64,000 nucleotides of DNA from Acidimicrobiales bacterium (GCA_050744865.1 JBOGHW010000015.1:7554-71553); one strand, 5' to 3'; positions 1 to 12,471 are shown, numbered from the stretch's first letter. Numbers and translations: made by a program. The notes: a model not told the origin generated them from the letters alone.

Positions 1-1122
1 ATCCTGTGGCACCAACCCGACACGTCTGACCGCTTCGCGCGGTGAGAGCGACGAAGGCTTGGTGCCCGCCACGACCACGTCACCGGACGTCGGGCGCCTG
101 AGGCCGGCAAGGTGAGACAGGAGGGTCGACTTACCGGCACCGTTTCTCCCCATGAGCGCCAGCACCTCGCCTACACGGATGTCGAGGTTGACGTCGAGGA
201 GGACAGGCGCACCCCCGAGTACGGAGGTGAGACGGTGGACCGAGGCGGCGCGCTCGCCCGTCGAGGGCAGGCTGCCATCGGGTGAGCCGAGCCGGCTGCG
301 GAGCGGCGCTGCTCGCAGGCGGGCGTCGCGCACAGACAGGGGTAGTGGCGACCAGCCGAGCAGGCGGCCAAGGCGGACGATCGGAGGGGCGATGCTCGAC
401 AGTGCCAGGACCTCAGGCGGTGGCCCGGCCAGCACCCTTGGAGTGGCGTCGGCGGCGACGCCCTTCCGGCTTCCCGGAAGCGACACGACCAAGTCGGCGG
501 CGTGCACTATGCGCTCCAGACGGTGCTCTGCCACAAGCACGGTGACTCCGTGGTCGTGCACGAGGCGCGAGAGCACCGCCAGTACCTCCTCTGCCGAGAC
601 AGGATCCAGGGACGAGGTCGGCTCGTCGAGGACCAGTATCCTCGGCGCTGCCGTCAGGGCGGCACCGATGGCGACGCGCTGGCGCTGGCCACCCGACAGC
701 GTGGCGATCGGGCGTTGCCGTAGAGGGTGCAGGTTGAGCACGTCGAGCACGTCCTCGACTCTCCGGCGCATCGCCGGCGGGTCGATGCCGAGGTTCTCCA
801 TCGAGTAAGCAAGCTCGTCCTCGACGACGTCGGCGACGAACGTCGCGTCCGGATCCTGGCCGACGTACCCGACGACGTCGGCAAGGTCCCGGGGGCGTGC
901 CTCGGCCGTGCTGCGCCCGTCGACGACGACCCGGCCCGCCAGCACGCCGCCGGAGAAGTGGGGGACGAGCCCGTTCACGCTCTTCAGGAGCGTGGACTTG
1001 CCCGAACCGGTCTCCCCGATGACAAGGGCGAGGTGGCCCTCCCCGATGTGCAGGTCGACGTCGGTCAGAGCTGGCTCGAGGCGGGCGGTGTAGGTGATGG
1101 TGACGTGGTCGAACGTGATCAC
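1..1122 (-). CDS. ECF/ABC transporter ATP-binding protein, fused double ATPase (EcfA1-EcfA2 type); 3' end runs off the window
   Basis: This frame is absent from the ORF track because it is open to the window edge. The reverse frame ending at 1122 reads VITFDHVTITYT. First Walker A is GETGSGKSTLLK (rc of 982-1017). ABC signature LSGGQRQRVAIG is rc of 658-699. Walker B ILVLDEPTSSLD is rc of 603-653. Second Walker A GRNGAGKSTL is rc of 121-150. The GTG start overlaps the TGA of the upstream gene (GTGA, 1119-1122). Confidence 0.85.
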   Translation of the reverse strand, partial: MITFDHVTITYTARLEPALTDVDLHIGEGHLALVIGETGSGKSTLLKSVNGLVPHFSGGVLAGRVVVDGRSTAEARPRDLADVVGYVGQDPDATFVADVVEDELAYSMENLGIDPPAMRRRVEDVLDVLNLHPLRQRPIATLSGGQRQRVAIGAALTAAPRILVLDEPTSSLDPVSAEEVLAVLSRLVHDHGVTVLVAEHRLERIVHAADLVVSLPGSRKGVAADATPRVLAGPPPEVLALSSIAPPIVRLGRLLGWSPLPLSVRDARLRAAPLRSRLGSPDGSLPSTGERAASVHRLTSVLGGAPVLLDVNLDIRVGEVLALMGRNGAGKSTLLSHLAGLRRPTSGDVVVAGTKPSSLSPREAVRRVGLVPQD

Positions 1123-2247: not shown

Positions 2248-4278
2248 CTATCGCTCCACTCCCGGGGCCCGACGAGAACGAGCTACCGCGAACACGCCGC
2301 CAGCCACGATGAGGAGACAGGCGAGTGCCAAAAGGGCGTCTCGGCCGAGGTGCGAGCTCCCGGTTGGCGACACGGTGCCGGCGAGCCCGCTATTGGCGTG
2401 GCCGGACCCAGCAGCTGTCCTGTTGCCATTCGTCCCGGCGGACCGGCTGGAAGTCCCGGCTTGCTGCTCGGGCGGACCAGTTCCGCTCGACGAGCCTGGC
2501 TGCGTCGAGCCAGTTGCGGCCGACGACGGGCGCGTCGAGGTGGCAGTGCTGGGGGCCACCGAGCTTGACGTCGTCGTGGCACCAGGCCTCGGGGCGGTCG
2601 TCACCGGTGGAGTGGTGGTCGTCGTCGTCGTCGTCGTGGGCGCGGTCGACGTTGCTTCCAGGGCCGCCACAGACGAGGCAGCCCGCGGCGGTGGGTCGGA
2701 GGGAGTGGCCGATCCATCGGGCTCGAACCTCCAGCCCTCCACGTCCCCGGCCGAGACGCGGTTTTCGGCTGGGCCGTCGCTGGAGTAGGTCCACTTGCTC
2801 CCGCCGTGGAAGTACGCCCAGTAGGCGTAATGGCTCCCGCTCTGTGCCCCACAACCCGAGGTCGGGTAGCCGTCGATCCGGCACAGCAGCCCGCTGCTGC
2901 CGTACACCGGTTGCGCGGTGTGAAGTGCGGCCGCTCTGGCGGCCAGGACGTCCGAGCCGGTCGAGCCCTTCGCCACAGCCACGCACGTGACGTCGACCCT
3001 CGACGCGGCGGAGCCGAAGTCGACGACTATGGGGACCACGACCTGGCCGCTAGCCGGCTTGGGGACGCTGGGGCAGGTCTTCTCCATAGACGAGCTTTTC
3101 GCCTGAGCGGCCACCGGAGACGTCTTCTTGGTGCTCGAGCAGACAGGTGAAGGCAGCGTGCCGGAGAGCGTCCCTTTTCCGATCGGGTAGGCCTTTCCGC
3201 TGGCGGCCGGTATGGCCTGGATCGTCGCATAGAGGCTCGGGCCTTCCGACCGGGTGTAGTAGTAGGCGCCTCGCACGCCGGCGGGTGCGGCGCACCCGAG
3301 CTGGAAGTGCTTGAGAGCCACTTCGGGGGATGCGCCGTCGTGGCGACTGAAGGCCGGCGAGTCGAGTTGGCCGAGAGCCACCAGGGCCTGGATCACGACG
3401 GCAGTCGAGTCAGGGTCCACCGGCTGCGACTTCGCCACCTGGCCTATGTAACCCCAACCGCCGTCGGGATATTGGGACTTCTCGAGAAACGGGATCGGGC
3501 TCGTTCGCGGATCGGTCTTGCTGGCGACGAGCGCCTCGATGGCCAGGGCAGTCGAGTTGGTGTCGGCGCCCGCATACTCGGCGGGATCCTCTGCGGGGCA
3601 CCCTTTCGAGACGTCGGCGCGATAGGAGATCCAGCCTCCGTTGCTGCACTGCTGCCGCACGAGCCAGCCAGCGCCCGCAGCGTTCGGGTGCCCCGTCGCT
3701 ACCAGCGCCAGCAGCGACAGGCCCTCTGTGTATGCACTCGAGTAGGTGGGGCTGCTCGGCGAGCCGAAGAGGCCGGCGTTGCCGCCCTTGGCCTTCTCGG
3801 TGGCGAGCAGCCGCGCCACCAAGTTGTTGGCCGCCTTGTCACCGCCGAAGGCCGTCGGGCTAGCCCCGGTCGCCACGGCGGCCAGGATCACCTCGGCCAT
3901 GCGGCCGGGCAGCACGACGGACTGCGTCTTGGAGACGGGCTCGGACACGAACGAGTTGAAGTGGGCCTCCAGATAGGCCAGGCCGGCCTTGGCTTGTTTG
4001 CTCCCCGTCTCGGCCGCCACGAGCGCCGTTAGAGCCAGTGGGAGGTTGTCGAGTCCTGCCTCACCCTCGGCCTTCGGTAGGTTGCCATTGCTGAGGAACT
4101 GGCGCCCGAGCCAGCCGGCGGCGTCCTGGGTCAACGTTGGCGGCGCCCCCGCCGAGAACCGGGCCGGCGTTTGGCTGTTGGTGTTGGTGGCACTCGCCCA
4201 GGGGATCAGTCCCGGCGCGGCGAGGCCACACAGAAGCGCCAGCGGAGCGGCAACTGAGATCTTCCACTTGGTATGCAT
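2248..4278 (-). CDS. Secreted, C-terminally anchored protein: prenyltransferase/terpene-cyclase-like alpha/alpha toroid plus DUF4430 (transcobalamin-like C-terminal) domain, putative cobalamin-binding
   Basis: I place the start at ATG 4278 (MHTKWKISVAAPLALLCGLAAPGLIPWASA, a signal peptide), preceded by SD GGAGAGGG. There are two QxxxGGW-type repeats (QQCSNGGWISY, SQYPDGGWGY). A beta-rich module follows (YAYWAYFHGGSKWTYSSDGPAENRVSAGDVEGWRF). Then come a T/P/S-rich stalk (T9 run), VSPTG, a hydrophobic helix and an RSRR tail. It is the first gene after the cobalamin riboswitch. Confidence 0.7.
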   Translation of the reverse strand: MHTKWKISVAAPLALLCGLAAPGLIPWASATNTNSQTPARFSAGAPPTLTQDAAGWLGRQFLSNGNLPKAEGEAGLDNLPLALTALVAAETGSKQAKAGLAYLEAHFNSFVSEPVSKTQSVVLPGRMAEVILAAVATGASPTAFGGDKAANNLVARLLATEKAKGGNAGLFGSPSSPTYSSAYTEGLSLLALVATGHPNAAGAGWLVRQQCSNGGWISYRADVSKGCPAEDPAEYAGADTNSTALAIEALVASKTDPRTSPIPFLEKSQYPDGGWGYIGQVAKSQPVDPDSTAVVIQALVALGQLDSPAFSRHDGASPEVALKHFQLGCAAPAGVRGAYYYTRSEGPSLYATIQAIPAASGKAYPIGKGTLSGTLPSPVCSSTKKTSPVAAQAKSSSMEKTCPSVPKPASGQVVVPIVVDFGSAASRVDVTCVAVAKGSTGSDVLAARAAALHTAQPVYGSSGLLCRIDGYPTSGCGAQSGSHYAYWAYFHGGSKWTYSSDGPAENRVSAGDVEGWRFEPDGSATPSDPPPRAASSVAALEATSTAPTTTTTTTTTPPVTTAPRPGATTTSSSVAPSTATSTRPSSAATGSTQPGSSSGTGPPEQQAGTSSRSAGTNGNRTAAGSGHANSGLAGTVSPTGSSHLGRDALLALACLLIVAGGVFAVARSRRAPGVER

Positions 4279-4282
4279 GTAC

Positions 4283-4510
4283 AACCCTCTCCGGAACTGG
4301 GTCCGAGAGGGCATGGGCTATCCACGACACCGGATCCCAATCCCCGTTTTCCTCGACGGTGTAGGGCAAACGTCCCCGCCGAGCTTCCCGGCTCGTGTGG
4401 CCCCCATCGGGTTGCCACACCTACGGTTGCGGGCCAGCGCCGGACTTCGACCGGACTTCCCTCAGTCGGTGACGGGCGCCAACCGGGCGCCGCTACGAAA
4501 GTACCAGACA
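4283..4510 (-). promoter_or_regulatory. Cobalamin (B12) riboswitch with an SD-sequestering expression platform
   Basis: The reverse strand reads GGCGCCCGGUUGGCGCC (hairpin). It continues GAGGGAAGUCCGGUCGAAGUCCGGCGCUGGCCCGCAACCGUA, matching the conserved GGGAA...CCCGCxACxGU core. Next are the hairpin GUGUGGC...GCCACAC and a B12-box-like GAGCCGGGAAGCUCGGC. Downstream, CCCUCUCGGA-CCCAGU-UCCGGAGAGGG (4285-4311) pairs the SD GGAGAGGG, which lies 6 nt before ATG 4278. Confidence 0.7.
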
Positions 4511-7434: not shown

Positions 7435-7647
7435 CGGGTCCTGTAGCGGGTCCTGGCATCGGGCCGCCGTCACCGGCTGAATAAGGCACCAAGGCACCCC
7501 AGCCCGTCCGCGGGCAGCTGTGGGTTCGGCCTGGCTCCTCACGATGCCGCGGCCACACAACCCAGTTGCGATTGACGGCGCACGAGGTGCTTCCTATCGT
7601 TGCGACCGGCGCGTTTCGAGGTGCGAACGCGCCGGAGGGGACACGAC

Positions 7648-10600
7648 ATGCGCAAGCCTGTGCTCGTCAGTCAGGGCCAATCCGTCCTCAGGCGGTTCTT
7701 GGCTGCAGCAGCGTTGACGGCCTGCCTCGTCGCCGCTGTCGCGGATCCCGCGGCCGCGGCCAGCTTGCAAAGGTCGCCGGCTGTCGGGCGTTCCACCGAG
7801 CACGACCCGGGCGGCGTCCGAGCTACCCTGCCCGGGGCACCATTCGTCGACACCACTGTCCCCGAAGGACTCGGCGTCCTCGTGACGTGGACGCCCGACC
7901 CGTCCTCGCAGGGTGTGACGTCCTACGTGCTCGGGGCCACAGTTGCGACGGCATATTCGCGACCTGTCAGCGCGAGCTGCAGCCATCCTTCCCCGACGAC
8001 CGCGCCCGGGGACGACACGGCCGCCCTCGTCACCGGCCTGTGCGCCAAGGTGCCTTACGCCATGACGGTGACGGCCAAAAGCAAGGCGGGAGCCAGCAAA
8101 GGCGGGCTCGCCTCCAACCCGACGGTCCCTCTCCCGCCGCAACCTCCGTCGCAACCGTTGATCACCTCGGTGTTGGCGCGCAGTGCTTCACTCGTGGTCG
8201 CCTGGTCGGCACCGGCGATAGGCGGCGGGGACGCTCTGACGGGCTACCACCTCACCGCGACGGCGACCGGCAGCTCGGTGAGTGAGTCGCTCTCGGCCTC
8301 GACCACCACCGCTACCGTCAAGGGGCTCACGAATGGCACGGAGTATGCCGTTACCCTGGCAGCTTCCTCGAAGGCGGGCAAGTCGGCGGTGTCGACCTCG
8401 TCGGGCACACCGCGCCCTTCCTATGTTCCTGGCTCGCCGCAGGGGCTGCAGGTCACGCCGGACGGGTCGGGCAACCTCGACGTCACATGGTCGGCGCCGG
8501 CCGACTCCGGCGGGGATCCGATCACCGCTTACGACCTCGCCTACCGGCCGGAGCTCTCCGAGAAGGGCACGTGGACGCCGACAGGCTCGGCCACGACGGT
8601 CAAGCTCCCTGCCGCGACGACGAGCACGACTTTGTCGAGCCTGTCAAGCGGCGACTTCTACGCCGTGTCGGTGGCGGCCGTCTCGGCTGCCGGCACCGGT
8701 CAGGCTGCCACCACCAGCACACCGGTGTCGCCAACCACCCAGCTGGCCGCCGGAGCCGTGGTGCTGAGCCACGCCACGATGGACGCTCTCGCTTCAGACG
8801 ACGCCGGGACCCTGACCTGGGATTCCCCTGTGCCTTCACAGGTGAGCTTGCTGTCGGCAGGGGCCGTGCTGATCGGCGGCACTGCCAAAGCGGTACCGAA
8901 CGGCCTGCTCGTGAAAGTCGTTGCCATCGCACCCGGTTCTTCTGGCGCTCTCGAGCTCGACACCGTCCAGGCATCACTGTCAGACGCCTTCTCGAACGTG
9001 AGCGTCAATGCCGCCAACCTTTTCGCAGGTAACGCCGAGCCCCAGCTGAGACCGGCGGTAGCCGGTGTCCGGATCATGCCGCACCTGACCGTCAGCCACA
9101 CGTTCGACCTGGATGTCACCTTGGTCGCCGGTGCGTTCTCGGTCGAAGGCGAGCTGGCGATCACCCCGACCTTCTCTCTCTCGTTCGAGATCAACCATGG
9201 CTTTGTCGACATCCCAGACGGGATATCGATGGCTGTGGCCGCCTCTCTGGGTGTCACCTTCAGCGGCACCATCGCTCTCGGCTACGGCTGCACCGACAGC
9301 GACAGCGACGGCGGCGGCGACGCCACGCTGCGAGGAGTGCGGGAGGGTGGTGAAGGAGGCAGTGGCGACTGCGAGAACGGCGAAGGAGACAGCGAGGGGA
9401 GCGGATGTTGCAAGTTCCTTCTCGCCACGATCAGCGAACCGCCGGTCTACTTCGACGTCGGGGGAGTCCCGGTCGAGGTCACGCCCGAGACGCCGATCTT
9501 CATCACCAGCGAGGGGGAGGTGAGCGCCGACGTCTCGTTTGGTGCCACCATAGGTGCTGCGATCTCGTGGACTTCGGCGCACCCAGCCACCCTTAGCGCC
9601 AAGAACCTCTCCCACCTCGGAGCCCCCACGGGAGGTGCTGAACCAGGGGGAGAGGTCAAGGAGACCGCGACGCTCAGCCTCGAAGTGGATCCCAACCTGG
9701 CCTTCTACGGCCTGGCCGGAGTCAACTTCGAGGTCGACTTCAGCGAGGCGGCCTTCGTCGACTGGACTGCACAGCCCTTCTTCGAGATCGAGACCTACGT
9801 GAAGATCGAGGCCGGCTTCCAGCTGGACTTCTCGCTCGGGCCGATCAACTACAACCAACTCGACGTCACCCTGGCCAAGATCAACGGCCCGAGCTTCGAG
9901 CTCAGCCAACCCTCTCACGCCGAGCTTCTCATAAAGCCCTTGGACGCCCAGGTCGGCGCCCCGGGACGATTACAGCTGACTGCCACCGCCTCGGACGGCG
10001 GCACGTCGAAGGTCTTCTGGGCCCTGGTGGATGGAGCCGCTGGCGACTCGTTGTCGAGTACCGGCTTGCTGAAGGTGGTCGCGCCCGGTGGCCGGCAGGT
10101 CAGGATCGTCGCCTATAACGCCGCGGGAGCAACCGGCGGCACGCTCGTCGAAGTGGCGGGTGCAGGCGATCCGCCGGCTGACGTGACAGGCACCGTTGCG
10201 GCGGGTGGCACTTGCCTCGACGTGTCCTGGCATCGCCCTGCCTCGAGCGGTGGCGTTCCGCTCGCGTCCTACACGGTGCTGACGCAGCCGCCGACCAAGA
10301 CGGTCACGCTCCCGGCTAGCGCTACCAGCACCCGCATCTGCGGCTTGGCGCTCGGCTCGACATACGTCGTTCAGATTTACGACACGAACGCAGACACATT
10401 CACTTCGGCGCCGACGGGCGTGTCGGTAACCACCCCGCAGCGGGGCGCCGTGGGCTCGACCACGACGTCCGAGCTGACACTGCCACCGAACGCGGCGGCC
10501 GACCCGGATACCGACATAGCGGCGGTGGCTTGCCCGAAGGCCGGCTACTGCGTGGTCGTAGGGTCTTACGACACGACGGGCAAGTACTTCGAGGGCATGA

Positions 10601-11823
10601 TCGCCACCATGTCAGACGGCGGCTGGAAGACGATCAAAGAACCGCTCCCGAGCGGGGCAAGCGTGACGGCGGGCTCTTGGCTCGAGGCTCTGTCATGCGC
10701 CTCTGCTTCCTACTGCGTGGCGACCGGCCCGTACTCCGAAGGCGACCTCCCCGAGCAAGTGGCCGACACTTTGACGAACGGTGTTTGGAAGCCCACCGAG
10801 CTCCCTCAGCCGGATCTCGGGGCGGGCGCAGCACTACGTGCCAGAACTGAGCGCCCCCGCCAGCCGAGAATACTGTTACCCGACAACGACGCCTTGTCGT
10901 GCCCAAGTGTCGGGAACTGCGTCAACATGACGTCATATCTGGACACGTGCAACTCCTCGGATCCGGCGCTTCTGGTCGATACGGAGTCGGGTGGCAAGTG
11001 GAAGTCGTCGACAGCACCGATGCCGGCCGGAGCCGATTGCATCATCGGGATCGCCATTTACGCAATCGGCTGCTCGTCGGTCACCTTTTGCGCTGCCGCC
11101 GAGCTGGACGAGTTGAACCTTGAGACTTACATGGAGACTCTCGTCGGAGGTCGCTGGACCCTGAAACAGATGGCTAACCCGATGACGGGCTACCACGGGA
11201 TAGACACCTACGTGAACTCGGTGACCTGCCCGAAAGCCGGGACGTGTATCGCCATAGGTGACGTCGGGGAGCCAACCGAGGCCGGCCCGTTTCCCTTGAT
11301 CGCCACTTTCGCGAAGGGAACCTGGAAGTCGTCCGAGGCGCCGCTTCCTGACAATGCCACCAAGGTGACCTTCGCCGAGGGTTACGCTCCCGGGAGGAGT
11401 GGTTACCTCAGCAGCGTGACGTGCCCTGTGGCGAGCTACTGCATGGCAGTCGGCGGCTACACGGCCGGCAGCTCGGGGCAGCAGACGAACGAAAGCCTTG
11501 TCGACACGCTGATAGGCGGCCACTGGACAGCAGCTGAAGCGCCCTTGGCATCTCCCTACACGTCCGGCGGCCTCAACCTCATCTCGTGCGCGGGGCCGGG
11601 GTCCTGCCTGTTGCTTGGTGGCTCACTCGCCGACACCGTTTACGGGACACGCCTCTTGGGAGGCGTCACGGCAGTGCCGACGGCATTCCAGACAGGGTTC
11701 GAGCAGAGTGGAGTCGCCTATGCCGGCAATGGGCAGTACCTGGTCGTCGGAACCTTCGAGAACAGCTCGGACGCCGAGGAGGGCTTTGCCCAGCTCGTTG
11801 GTATTGCCGGGGCGGCGCCCTGA
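7648..11823 (+). CDS. Large secreted multidomain protein: signal peptide, 3 FN3 domains, unknown beta-rich domain, Big_2-like Ig domain, FN3, 7-repeat Cys-clasped propeller-like C-terminus
   Basis: Start is ATG 7648 (MRKPVLVSQGQSVLRRFLAAAALTACLVAAVADPAAAA) after GGAGGGG. FN3 signatures include LVVAWSAP..GG..LTGYHL and LDVTWSAPADSGGDPITAYDL. A Big_2-like stretch reads LQLTATASDGGTSKVFWALVDG...GLLKVVAPG. There are seven C-x5-C repeats (CPKAGYC, CASASYC, CPSVGNC, CSSVTFC, CPKAGTC, CPVASYC, CAGPGSC). Confidence 0.8.
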   Translation: MRKPVLVSQGQSVLRRFLAAAALTACLVAAVADPAAAASLQRSPAVGRSTEHDPGGVRATLPGAPFVDTTVPEGLGVLVTWTPDPSSQGVTSYVLGATVATAYSRPVSASCSHPSPTTAPGDDTAALVTGLCAKVPYAMTVTAKSKAGASKGGLASNPTVPLPPQPPSQPLITSVLARSASLVVAWSAPAIGGGDALTGYHLTATATGSSVSESLSASTTTATVKGLTNGTEYAVTLAASSKAGKSAVSTSSGTPRPSYVPGSPQGLQVTPDGSGNLDVTWSAPADSGGDPITAYDLAYRPELSEKGTWTPTGSATTVKLPAATTSTTLSSLSSGDFYAVSVAAVSAAGTGQAATTSTPVSPTTQLAAGAVVLSHATMDALASDDAGTLTWDSPVPSQVSLLSAGAVLIGGTAKAVPNGLLVKVVAIAPGSSGALELDTVQASLSDAFSNVSVNAANLFAGNAEPQLRPAVAGVRIMPHLTVSHTFDLDVTLVAGAFSVEGELAITPTFSLSFEINHGFVDIPDGISMAVAASLGVTFSGTIALGYGCTDSDSDGGGDATLRGVREGGEGGSGDCENGEGDSEGSGCCKFLLATISEPPVYFDVGGVPVEVTPETPIFITSEGEVSADVSFGATIGAAISWTSAHPATLSAKNLSHLGAPTGGAEPGGEVKETATLSLEVDPNLAFYGLAGVNFEVDFSEAAFVDWTAQPFFEIETYVKIEAGFQLDFSLGPINYNQLDVTLAKINGPSFELSQPSHAELLIKPLDAQVGAPGRLQLTATASDGGTSKVFWALVDGAAGDSLSSTGLLKVVAPGGRQVRIVAYNAAGATGGTLVEVAGAGDPPADVTGTVAAGGTCLDVSWHRPASSGGVPLASYTVLTQPPTKTVTLPASATSTRICGLALGSTYVVQIYDTNADTFTSAPTGVSVTTPQRGAVGSTTTSELTLPPNAAADPDTDIAAVACPKAGYCVVVGSYDTTGKYFEGMIATMSDGGWKTIKEPLPSGASVTAGSWLEALSCASASYCVATGPYSEGDLPEQVADTLTNGVWKPTELPQPDLGAGAALRARTERPRQPRILLPDNDALSCPSVGNCVNMTSYLDTCNSSDPALLVDTESGGKWKSSTAPMPAGADCIIGIAIYAIGCSSVTFCAAAELDELNLETYMETLVGGRWTLKQMANPMTGYHGIDTYVNSVTCPKAGTCIAIGDVGEPTEAGPFPLIATFAKGTWKSSEAPLPDNATKVTFAEGYAPGRSGYLSSVTCPVASYCMAVGGYTAGSSGQQTNESLVDTLIGGHWTAAEAPLASPYTSGGLNLISCAGPGSCLLLGGSLADTVYGTRLLGGVTAVPTAFQTGFEQSGVAYAGNGQYLVVGTFENSSDAEEGFAQLVGIAGAAP

Positions 11824-12398: not shown

Positions 12399-12471
12399 CT
12401 CCGGGGGAGAGACTCGAACTCTCAACGCCGCGGTTAACAGCCGCGTGCTCTGCCAATTGAGCTACCCCGGA
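12399..12471 (-). tRNA. tRNA-Asn (anticodon GTT)
   Basis: A 73-nt cloverleaf folded by hand. Acceptor is TCCGGGG/CCCCGGA and the D arm is GCTC-AATTGGCA-GAGC. The anticodon arm is CGCGG-CTGTTAA-CCGCG and the T arm is GAGAG-TTCGAGT-CTCTC. The discriminator is G and CCA is not encoded. Confidence 0.92.

Follow-up and report, generated by a model that had tools for sequence, protein, structure and literature searches.

Few components of corrinoid (B12-family) acquisition are known in Gram-positive and actinobacterial cells beyond BtuFCD, ECF-CbrT and BacA. ECF-CbrT, the characterised energy-coupling factor (ECF)-type vitamin B12 importer of Lactobacillus delbrueckii, works without an extracytoplasmic binding protein. 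In Bacteroides, BtuG and BtuH serve as surface-exposed, high-affinity corrinoid binders encoded beside a riboswitch-controlled B12 transporter, but these are outer-membrane lipoproteins that feed the TonB-dependent BtuB, not an ECF importer. Here we describe a gene from an Acidimicrobiales bacterium that stands behind a cobalamin riboswitch at the head of a predicted ECF operon, and whose product is probably an extracytoplasmic, membrane-tethered corrinoid capture protein. It occupies 2248..4278 on the minus strand of a stretch of 64,000 nucleotides (GCA_050744865.1, JBOGHW010000015.1:7554-71553), hereafter the window, and encodes 676 residues. The gene had been singled out by a model reading the DNA alone (the original prediction). 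BtuG and BtuH are the nearest functional analogues of the role proposed for it, although their folds are unrelated to that of the window protein, BtuG being a beta-propeller and BtuH having a distinct C-terminal domain.

In architecture, the closest described proteins are the eukaryotic B12 carriers transcobalamin, intrinsic factor and haptocorrin, which pair a PF01122 alpha domain with a PF14478/DUF4430-type beta domain (2bb5, 2bb6, 2pmv, 4kki). The window protein has the same order, an N-terminal 12-helix alpha/alpha barrel followed by a flexible linker and a C-terminal beta domain of ~110 residues. Carriers and window protein alike are secreted or extracytoplasmic and linked to B12, in the present case via the riboswitch. 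By contrast with the carriers, the window protein matches neither PF01122 nor PF14478 significantly in sequence, and it continues into a long low-complexity stalk and a transmembrane anchor. The carriers use endocytic receptors, whereas the window protein is bacterial and encoded in an ECF operon.

A precedent for this combination has been described in a Firmicute. Locus lsa1836-1840 of Lactobacillus sakei encodes ECF S, fused A-A' and T components together with two secreted proteins, of which HHpred identified Lsa1839 as transcobalamin-beta-like and Lsa1840 as transcobalamin-alpha-like (bioRxiv 10.1101/864751). Deletion of the operon lowered heme uptake and heme was docked into a homology model, while the automatic annotation of the operon was cobalamin transport; the heme assignment derives from docking and an uptake phenotype (bioRxiv 10.1101/864751). 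By concept, and by the HHpred-assigned domains as described in that study (bioRxiv 10.1101/864751), the two loci resemble each other in adding an extracytoplasmic transcobalamin-like binder to an ECF importer. The L. sakei alpha and beta parts are split between two proteins and heme is the proposed ligand, whereas the window protein is fused, membrane-tethered, from an actinomycetote and governed by a cobalamin riboswitch; the word riboswitch has no mention in the L. sakei paper (bioRxiv 10.1101/864751).

Sequence relatives are found in Streptomyces, where SCO2321 (NF053823) and SCO2322 (NF040672; PF28005) are homologous to window-protein residues 163-395 and 389-479, respectively. Relatives of SCO2321 and SCO2322 are mostly encoded by adjacent genes, the second carrying the same stalk and transmembrane tail, whereas the window has one polypeptide. 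Searches of the accessible literature, which also covered prenyltransferases in connection with riboswitches, returned no functional study of SCO2321, SCO2322, bacterial DUF4430 proteins or a riboswitch-controlled transcobalamin-like protein, and no account of the present family. The system is a fused, riboswitch-controlled actinobacterial variant of the little-studied pairing of ECF importers with transcobalamin-like proteins, and as such is not categorically new. Both the fusion of two genes and the Firmicute precedent were missed by the original prediction.

Predicted fold and membrane anchoring of the surface protein

An AlphaFold2 (AF2) model of residues 28-530, built with 58 sequences, reached a predicted local distance difference test (pLDDT) score of 83.9 and a predicted template modelling (pTM) score of 0.71. 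In it, a 12-helix toroid is predicted with very high confidence (pLDDT mostly >90) and the beta domain with moderate confidence, and the linker between them is disordered. When this model was compared with the PDB using Foldseek, the best 14 matches were all transcobalamin, haptocorrin or intrinsic factor (E 1.5e-9 to 1.5e-6), with alignments spanning ~500 columns and hence both domains; terpene cyclases ranked next, at E 2e-6 and weaker.

The resemblance persists when the beta domain is modelled alone (AF2, 121 sequences; pLDDT 93.6, pTM 0.86). Its best 18 Foldseek matches in the PDB are the beta domains of transcobalamin, haptocorrin and intrinsic factor together with 3u7z, all at probability 1.00 and with template modelling (TM) scores of 0.51-0.66 normalised to the query. 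The isolated transcobalamin beta domain structures 5no0 and 5np4 are among these; TM against 5no0 is 0.57 by query and 0.66 by target, and the root-mean-square deviation (rmsd) against 4kki is 2.8 Å. The remaining match, 3u7z, comes from bacterial structural genomics and carries the deposited title 'putative metal binding protein'; we take it to be a DUF4430 member. For the whole ectodomain as for the beta domain alone, AF2 and Foldseek agree with the transcobalamin-like two-domain architecture that the original prediction had put forward.

Sequence families place the two halves with the Streptomyces proteins. The precomputed Pfam annotation of exactly this protein is PF28005 'SCO2322', and the NCBIfam models match it as SCO2321_fam (NF053823, residues 163-395, E 1.8e-39, 135.8 bits against a cut-off of 300) and SCO2322_fam (NF040672, residues 389-479, E 1.5e-18, 67.5 bits against a cut-off of 85). 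Because both scores fall below the curated cut-offs, the toroid part is classed by its sequence as a homologue of SCO2321_fam and not as an equivalog. A word-indexed homologue search with the beta domain alone returned 7 proteins; family size was taken from an exhaustive profile search, which found 4138 cluster representatives (50% clustering, E<=1e-3). Among the beta-profile matches, P0268 (1864 aa) shows 23 partial matches to profile positions 68-111 and may be a YWxY...W repeat protein or a low-complexity artefact.

Two cysteines, Cys380 (3139-3141) and Cys402 (3073-3075, both minus strand), flank the linker of the fused protein. Toroid-only proteins terminate in '...LPxxxC', and stand-alone beta proteins carry a Cys ~7 residues ahead of the first strand. 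This pattern suggests a Cys380-Cys402 disulfide, which in split systems would be inter-subunit.

At the N-terminus, a Lys-rich start, a hydrophobic core and ASA|T at residues 28-31 look Sec-like by eye, which fits the signal peptide originally proposed. A lipoprotein signal was considered and rejected: 'LALLC' puts Leu at -1, an atypical lipobox, and the ASA cleavage site comes after it. At the other end of the protein, stand-alone beta relatives also have a comparable stalk directly after the beta domain, their plan being signal peptide, beta domain, low-complexity stalk, transmembrane helix and RRR tail. The transmembrane helix and basic tail, the latter (S/T)RR in the closest orthologues, are kept in P0002-P0011 and in most stand-alone beta proteins. 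In one Mycobacteriales clade the protein terminates straight after the beta domain and the anchor is absent.

The sequence VSPTG ahead of the helix had been read as a degenerate sortase signal, in which case a sortase would attach the protein covalently to the cell wall. The order of VSPTG, hydrophobic helix and RSRR does resemble an LPXTG sorting signal, and 3 of the 58 more distant homologues have a true Pfam Gram_pos_anchor motif, such as P0091 with LPRTG. However, VSPTG is unique to the window protein among its orthologues, the closest of which (~52-63% full-length identity) have LDPNG, TSPAT, ANPRG, TSPRS or ATPVP at this position, leaving T-G unconserved. A motif of the form [LVI][PAS]xTG lies within the last 60 residues in just 7/158 relatives, the window protein does not match PF00746, and a charged 7-residue spacer, SSHLGRD, sits between VSPTG and the helix. 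A crude scan of the window for a TLxTC motif found no sortase-like ORF (open reading frame), in line with the earlier statement that the window has no sortase gene. Sortase attachment is accordingly very unlikely. Because the helix and basic tail are conserved while VSPTG is not, the protein is most plausibly a long-stalked type I membrane protein and not a sortase substrate.

Riboswitch, operon and distribution

The element upstream of the gene matches the cobalamin riboswitch model RF00174 over its full length (model positions 1-189; local scan of 701 nt) with 27.1 bits and E 6.5e-5, below the gathering score of 31.5 bits, and is made convincing by comparative data. Using a 20-sequence alignment, 80 loci with relatives were fetched, one genome per species. 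A strict core pattern found one match per locus, on the coding strand and ~250-400 nt upstream of the homologue, in ~70 of the 80. A relaxed pattern added 8 further loci at the same position, so that 78/80 have a strict or relaxed match; the count is 79/80 with L036, which has neither core pattern and is covered solely by an Rfam match above the gathering score. L025 differs in that its ECF genes precede the toroid gene and have the core upstream of them. Across the 80 loci the link between homologues and riboswitch is thus essentially universal, which bears out a central element of the original prediction.

Some of these elements are recognised by Rfam outright: 8 of 20 loci scanned exceed the gathering score (33-47 bits), with the element at the orthologous position. 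The 39-nt core of the window element (GGGAAGUCCGGUCGAAGUCCGGCGCUGGCCCGCAACCGU) is 1-2 bases off the cores of loci that pass the gathering score (L009-L013, 39-47 bits). In an alignment of 14 loci, this core and the B12 box GAGCCGGGA are invariant or nearly so, and 12 of the 23 predicted pairs show compensatory changes. Given the recurrence of the core across loci, the threshold-passing orthologous elements and the covarying stems, the window element is accepted as a genuine, somewhat atypical cobalamin riboswitch.

Downstream of the aptamer, the hairpin that includes the Shine-Dalgarno sequence has a minimum free energy of -17.2 kcal/mol (z -2.46), and 2 of 200 shuffled sequences fold equally well. 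Other loci have a hairpin of different sequence at the same position, for example L042 (-25.4 kcal/mol, z -2.43). Folding of the whole 96-nt leader is insignificant (z -0.42), and the short Shine-Dalgarno hairpin alone stands out. Its location suggests that the riboswitch would exert translational control. A further conserved box, CCGUCGAG(G/A)A (window 4352-4359, minus strand), lies between the aptamer and the Shine-Dalgarno hairpin and is kept in nearly all loci ~25-35 nt 3' of the B12 box; some gene calls translate it as '...TVEE.G.WDP'.

On its other side, the gene is followed after 4 nt by ecfT, which begins with TTG at 2243 and overlaps the start of a fused ecfA-ecfA' gene. The full ATPase gene is present on a longer public contig (L001, 7154-8776, 540 aa), and its product scores 247.5 bits with TIGR01166 (cbiO subfamily; cut-off 211.8) and 305 and 295 bits with TIGR04520 and TIGR04521, just under their cut-offs. 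The next gene, just outside the window, encodes an S component of 292 aa (PF12822, 32.2 bits against a cut-off of 30.7). The surface-protein gene heads a predicted complete and dedicated Group I ECF importer operon (T, fused A-A', S), with the spacing and importer type that had been called from the window. In EcfT, the Pfam CbiQ match spans residues 15-220, and the C-terminal ~150 residues beyond the model are apparently membrane-embedded.

Nearly all relatives of the protein come from metagenome-assembled genomes (MAGs) of Acidimicrobiia recovered from soil and peat; Mycobacteriales, Jatrophihabitans and Amycolatopsis hold a second clade. By tblastn and a hidden Markov model of the beta domain, a beta domain directly follows the toroid in 44/80 loci. 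The order alpha, beta, ecfT, ecfA-A', ecfS recurs in ~44 loci of Acidimicrobiia and Mycobacteriales MAGs wherever the contig continues, and no locus among the 80 has the ECF genes without a beta domain. Alpha and beta are separate genes in most loci and are fused in ~5-8, including the clade of the window. With its SCO2321-like alpha and SCO2322-like beta parts, the window protein is a fusion of products that most genomes encode apart.

About 36 other loci (e.g. L042:5863-7233, L027, L029, L040, L041, L044-L046) consist of a riboswitch followed by a monocistronic secreted toroid. These toroid-only paralogues end in a C-terminal immunoglobulin-like domain (He_PIG, TIG or Big), have neither a beta domain nor ECF genes nearby, and occur several to a genome in some MAGs. 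In the Mycobacteriales/Jatrophihabitans clade, L016:5782-8268 and L018:5596-10358 encode an anchorless fused alpha-beta protein and a second, stand-alone beta protein with stalk and transmembrane anchor.

Proposed function and rival explanations

The proposed mechanism begins with Sec export, after which the toroid and beta domain would be displayed on a wall-spanning Thr/Pro/Ser stalk of ~120 residues, held by the C-terminal transmembrane helix with RSRR on the cytoplasmic side. The two displayed modules would be those between which B12 is held in transcobalamin, intrinsic factor and haptocorrin, and the surface protein would be co-transcribed with a dedicated ECF importer comprising EcfT, fused EcfA-A' and an S component. 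Scarce corrinoids could in this way be bound at or beyond the cell wall. We infer that bound corrinoid would then either be raised in local concentration at the S component or be handed over to it. Once intracellular B12 is sufficient, the riboswitch would silence the operon, with sequestration of the ribosome-binding site as the probable means.

Several observations weigh against corrinoid capture. The sole studied analogue, that of L. sakei, is assigned to heme uptake and not to B12, and to our knowledge ECF transporters are generally held to need no extracytoplasmic binding proteins. Searches with the S component, run both with the single sequence and with a profile, detected no similarity to any solved S component, that of ECF-CbrT included. 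The sequence similarity of the surface protein itself is to terpene-cyclase repeats: a profile of the ectodomain matched terpene cyclases alone among PDB sequences, and a profile of the beta domain matched nothing meaningful there. The protein has no match to PF01122 (Cobalamin_bind), a family matched weakly by 4/58 toroid homologues (best P0059, E 1.4e-5, 24.7 bits against a cut-off of 25). Likewise, PF14478 (DUF4430) is matched neither by the window beta domain nor by any of the 121 beta-family members, even at E<=5. At gathering stringency, an Rfam scan does not report the window riboswitch. Finally, the whole model superposes on transcobalamin with a TM score of 0.36-0.50 and an rmsd of 12-15 Å. 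These values would fit two matching domains whose relative orientation is different or uncertain. With a linker of pLDDT <50 (model residues 359-373), the placement of the two domains relative to each other, and with it any B12 pocket between them, is tentative in the model.

What the original prediction observed in the sequence is confirmed, and the core of its interpretation is supported. Two details were wrong, namely the sortase signal and DUF4430 membership, the latter holding as a resemblance of fold (Foldseek, the pLDDT 93.6 model) and failing as sequence membership. Of the Pfam families it had named, SQHop_cyclase was recovered, as a weak SQHop_cyclase_C match, while Cobalamin_bind and DUF4430 were not.

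The ligand could be something other than complete B12. Were the protein to bind heme and the ECF system to import it, the locus would parallel the proposal for L. sakei lsa1836-1840, where deletion of the ECF operon lowered heme uptake and heme was docked (bioRxiv 10.1101/864751). A cobalamin riboswitch at essentially every locus is what would be expected for a corrinoid or cobalt and not for heme, the best structural matches are B12 carriers, and the L. sakei assignment itself combines docking with an uptake phenotype for an operon auto-annotated as cobalamin transport; heme is therefore quite unlikely. Somewhat less remote, though still unlikely, is a riboswitch-controlled importer of cobalt or of a corrinoid precursor such as cobinamide, with the surface protein scavenging the metal or precursor. 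It is textbook knowledge that cobalt transporters such as CbiMNQO are commonly under cobalamin riboswitches, and that haptocorrin also binds incomplete corrinoids. In its favour, Pfam assigns the T component to 'CbiQ, cobalt transport protein', the ATPase scores above the cut-off of the cbiO subfamily, and the title under which 3u7z was deposited refers to metal binding. However, the S component is of PF12822 type and not CbiM/CbiN, and capture of a bare metal ion would hardly call for a two-domain, B12-carrier-like fold of ~480 residues. Import of a precursor may still apply, and differs from corrinoid capture as proposed here in ligand specificity alone.

A different kind of alternative holds that the toroid is an extracellular enzyme of terpene cyclase, prenyltransferase or six-hairpin hydrolase type with a substrate in the envelope or the environment, and that the link to B12 is regulatory only. 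A profile of the toroid family finds squalene-hopene cyclase (SHC) repeats in the PDB at E 1.2e-11 (1gsz), PF13243 is weakly matched by 46/58 homologues, two QxxxGGW-like repeats are present, and the ~36 riboswitch-controlled paralogues lack a beta domain and ECF genes. In the alignment, however, D-V-D-D-T-A of SHC corresponds to D-T-N-S-T-A, so that the DxDD general-acid motif of the cyclases is replaced by D-T-N-S, and cyclase chemistry is unlikely because of this replacement. The 20 closer sequences keep D212, T213 and N214 without exception; across the 58-sequence set this is true of D212, with T213 and N214 conserved at >=90%. Class II cyclases and prenyltransferases are textbook users of cytoplasmic or membrane isoprenoid diphosphates, whereas the window protein is exported, and its gene occurs in tight linkage with a transcobalamin-beta-like domain and an ECF importer. 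An enzymatic role is on these grounds highly improbable, and corrinoid capture is preferred.

It is conceivable, if somewhat doubtful, that true structural counterparts of the animal B12 carriers exist in bacteria, perhaps as the source from which the carriers evolved, and that such proteins provide extracytoplasmic substrate capture for ECF importers in Actinomycetota. If so, this would be an ECF importer in need of a binding protein, which textbooks say ECF systems do without, and soil Acidimicrobiia would harbour, in the toroid-only paralogues, a broader and so far undescribed set of secreted corrinoid binders. The family is large, with its 4138 beta representatives, and consistently riboswitch-controlled. 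Should it bind corrinoids, soil Actinomycetota would gain a transcobalamin-fold counterpart of BtuG/BtuH, recruitment of extracytoplasmic binders by ECF transporters could be demonstrated, and it would become possible to test where the animal B12 carriers came from. For a binding test, the fused single-chain form is a convenient construct. The analysis also corrects the labels that such proteins carry at present, 'prenyltransferase/squalene oxidase repeat-containing protein' or 'hypothetical'.

Gene coordinates and neighbouring features

The ORF starts with ATG at 4278, preceded by the Shine-Dalgarno sequence, and stops with TAG at 2248-2250; a second in-frame ATG at 4314 is an alternative start. 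NCBI gene calls for the same DNA concur with the ORF and with the ecfT junction. The product is 100% the same as database protein P0001, seen on NCBI MAG contig GCA_974104365.1 and in a Logan assembly. The G+C content of the window is 68%.

All sequence strings quoted in the original prediction are present in the translation. The QxxxGGW-like repeats QQCSNGGWISY and SQYPDGGWGY are residues 209-219 and 278-287, VVPIVVDFG is 414-422 and YAYWAYFHGG...EGWRF is 484-518. A run of exactly 9 Thr occupies residues 548-556, VSPTG is 636-640, and the hydrophobic helix covers ~648-666, followed by RSRR at 667-670.

Table 1. Features of the riboswitch-controlled locus, in the order in which they are read (window positions).
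Feature	Residues or length	Position	Strand	Basis
Cobalamin riboswitch aptamer		4362..4502	minus	RF00174 sub-threshold, comparative support
Hairpin, 3' arm contains Shine-Dalgarno (GGAGAGGG, 4285-4292), likely translational expression platform		4284..4312	minus	folding energy
Coding sequence, transcobalamin-like surface protein, fused SCO2321-like and SCO2322-like parts	676 aa	2248..4278	minus	
Sec-type signal peptide, cleavage probable after ASA	1-30	4189..4278	minus	sequence read by eye; homologue N-termini comparable
Alpha/alpha toroid (alpha domain), 12 predicted helices	~31-375	3154..4188	minus	AF2, profile, NF053823, Foldseek
Beta domain, PF28005 'SCO2322', transcobalamin-beta-like fold	~411-520	2719..3048	minus	AF2, Foldseek, NF040672
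Thr/Pro/Ser-rich low-complexity stalk	~521-640 (~120 residues)	2359..2718	minus	sequence read directly
C-terminal transmembrane helix and RSRR stop-transfer tail, membrane anchor	648-670	2269..2337	minus	conservation
ecfT (CbiQ family transmembrane component)	374 aa	1119..2243	minus	PF02361 E 2.6e-8, 34.2 bits vs cut-off 25
Fused ecfA-ecfA' ATPase, 5' part, runs past window start		1..1122	minus	translation shows ATPase sequence

Two further features lie elsewhere in the window. An ORF of 1407 aa at 7600-11823 (plus strand) has a signal-peptide-like N-terminus and repeated Ser/Thr/Ala-rich segments resembling surface-protein repeats. A tRNA gene at 12399-12471 (minus strand, 64.2 bits) is the sole Rfam match in the window at gathering stringency.

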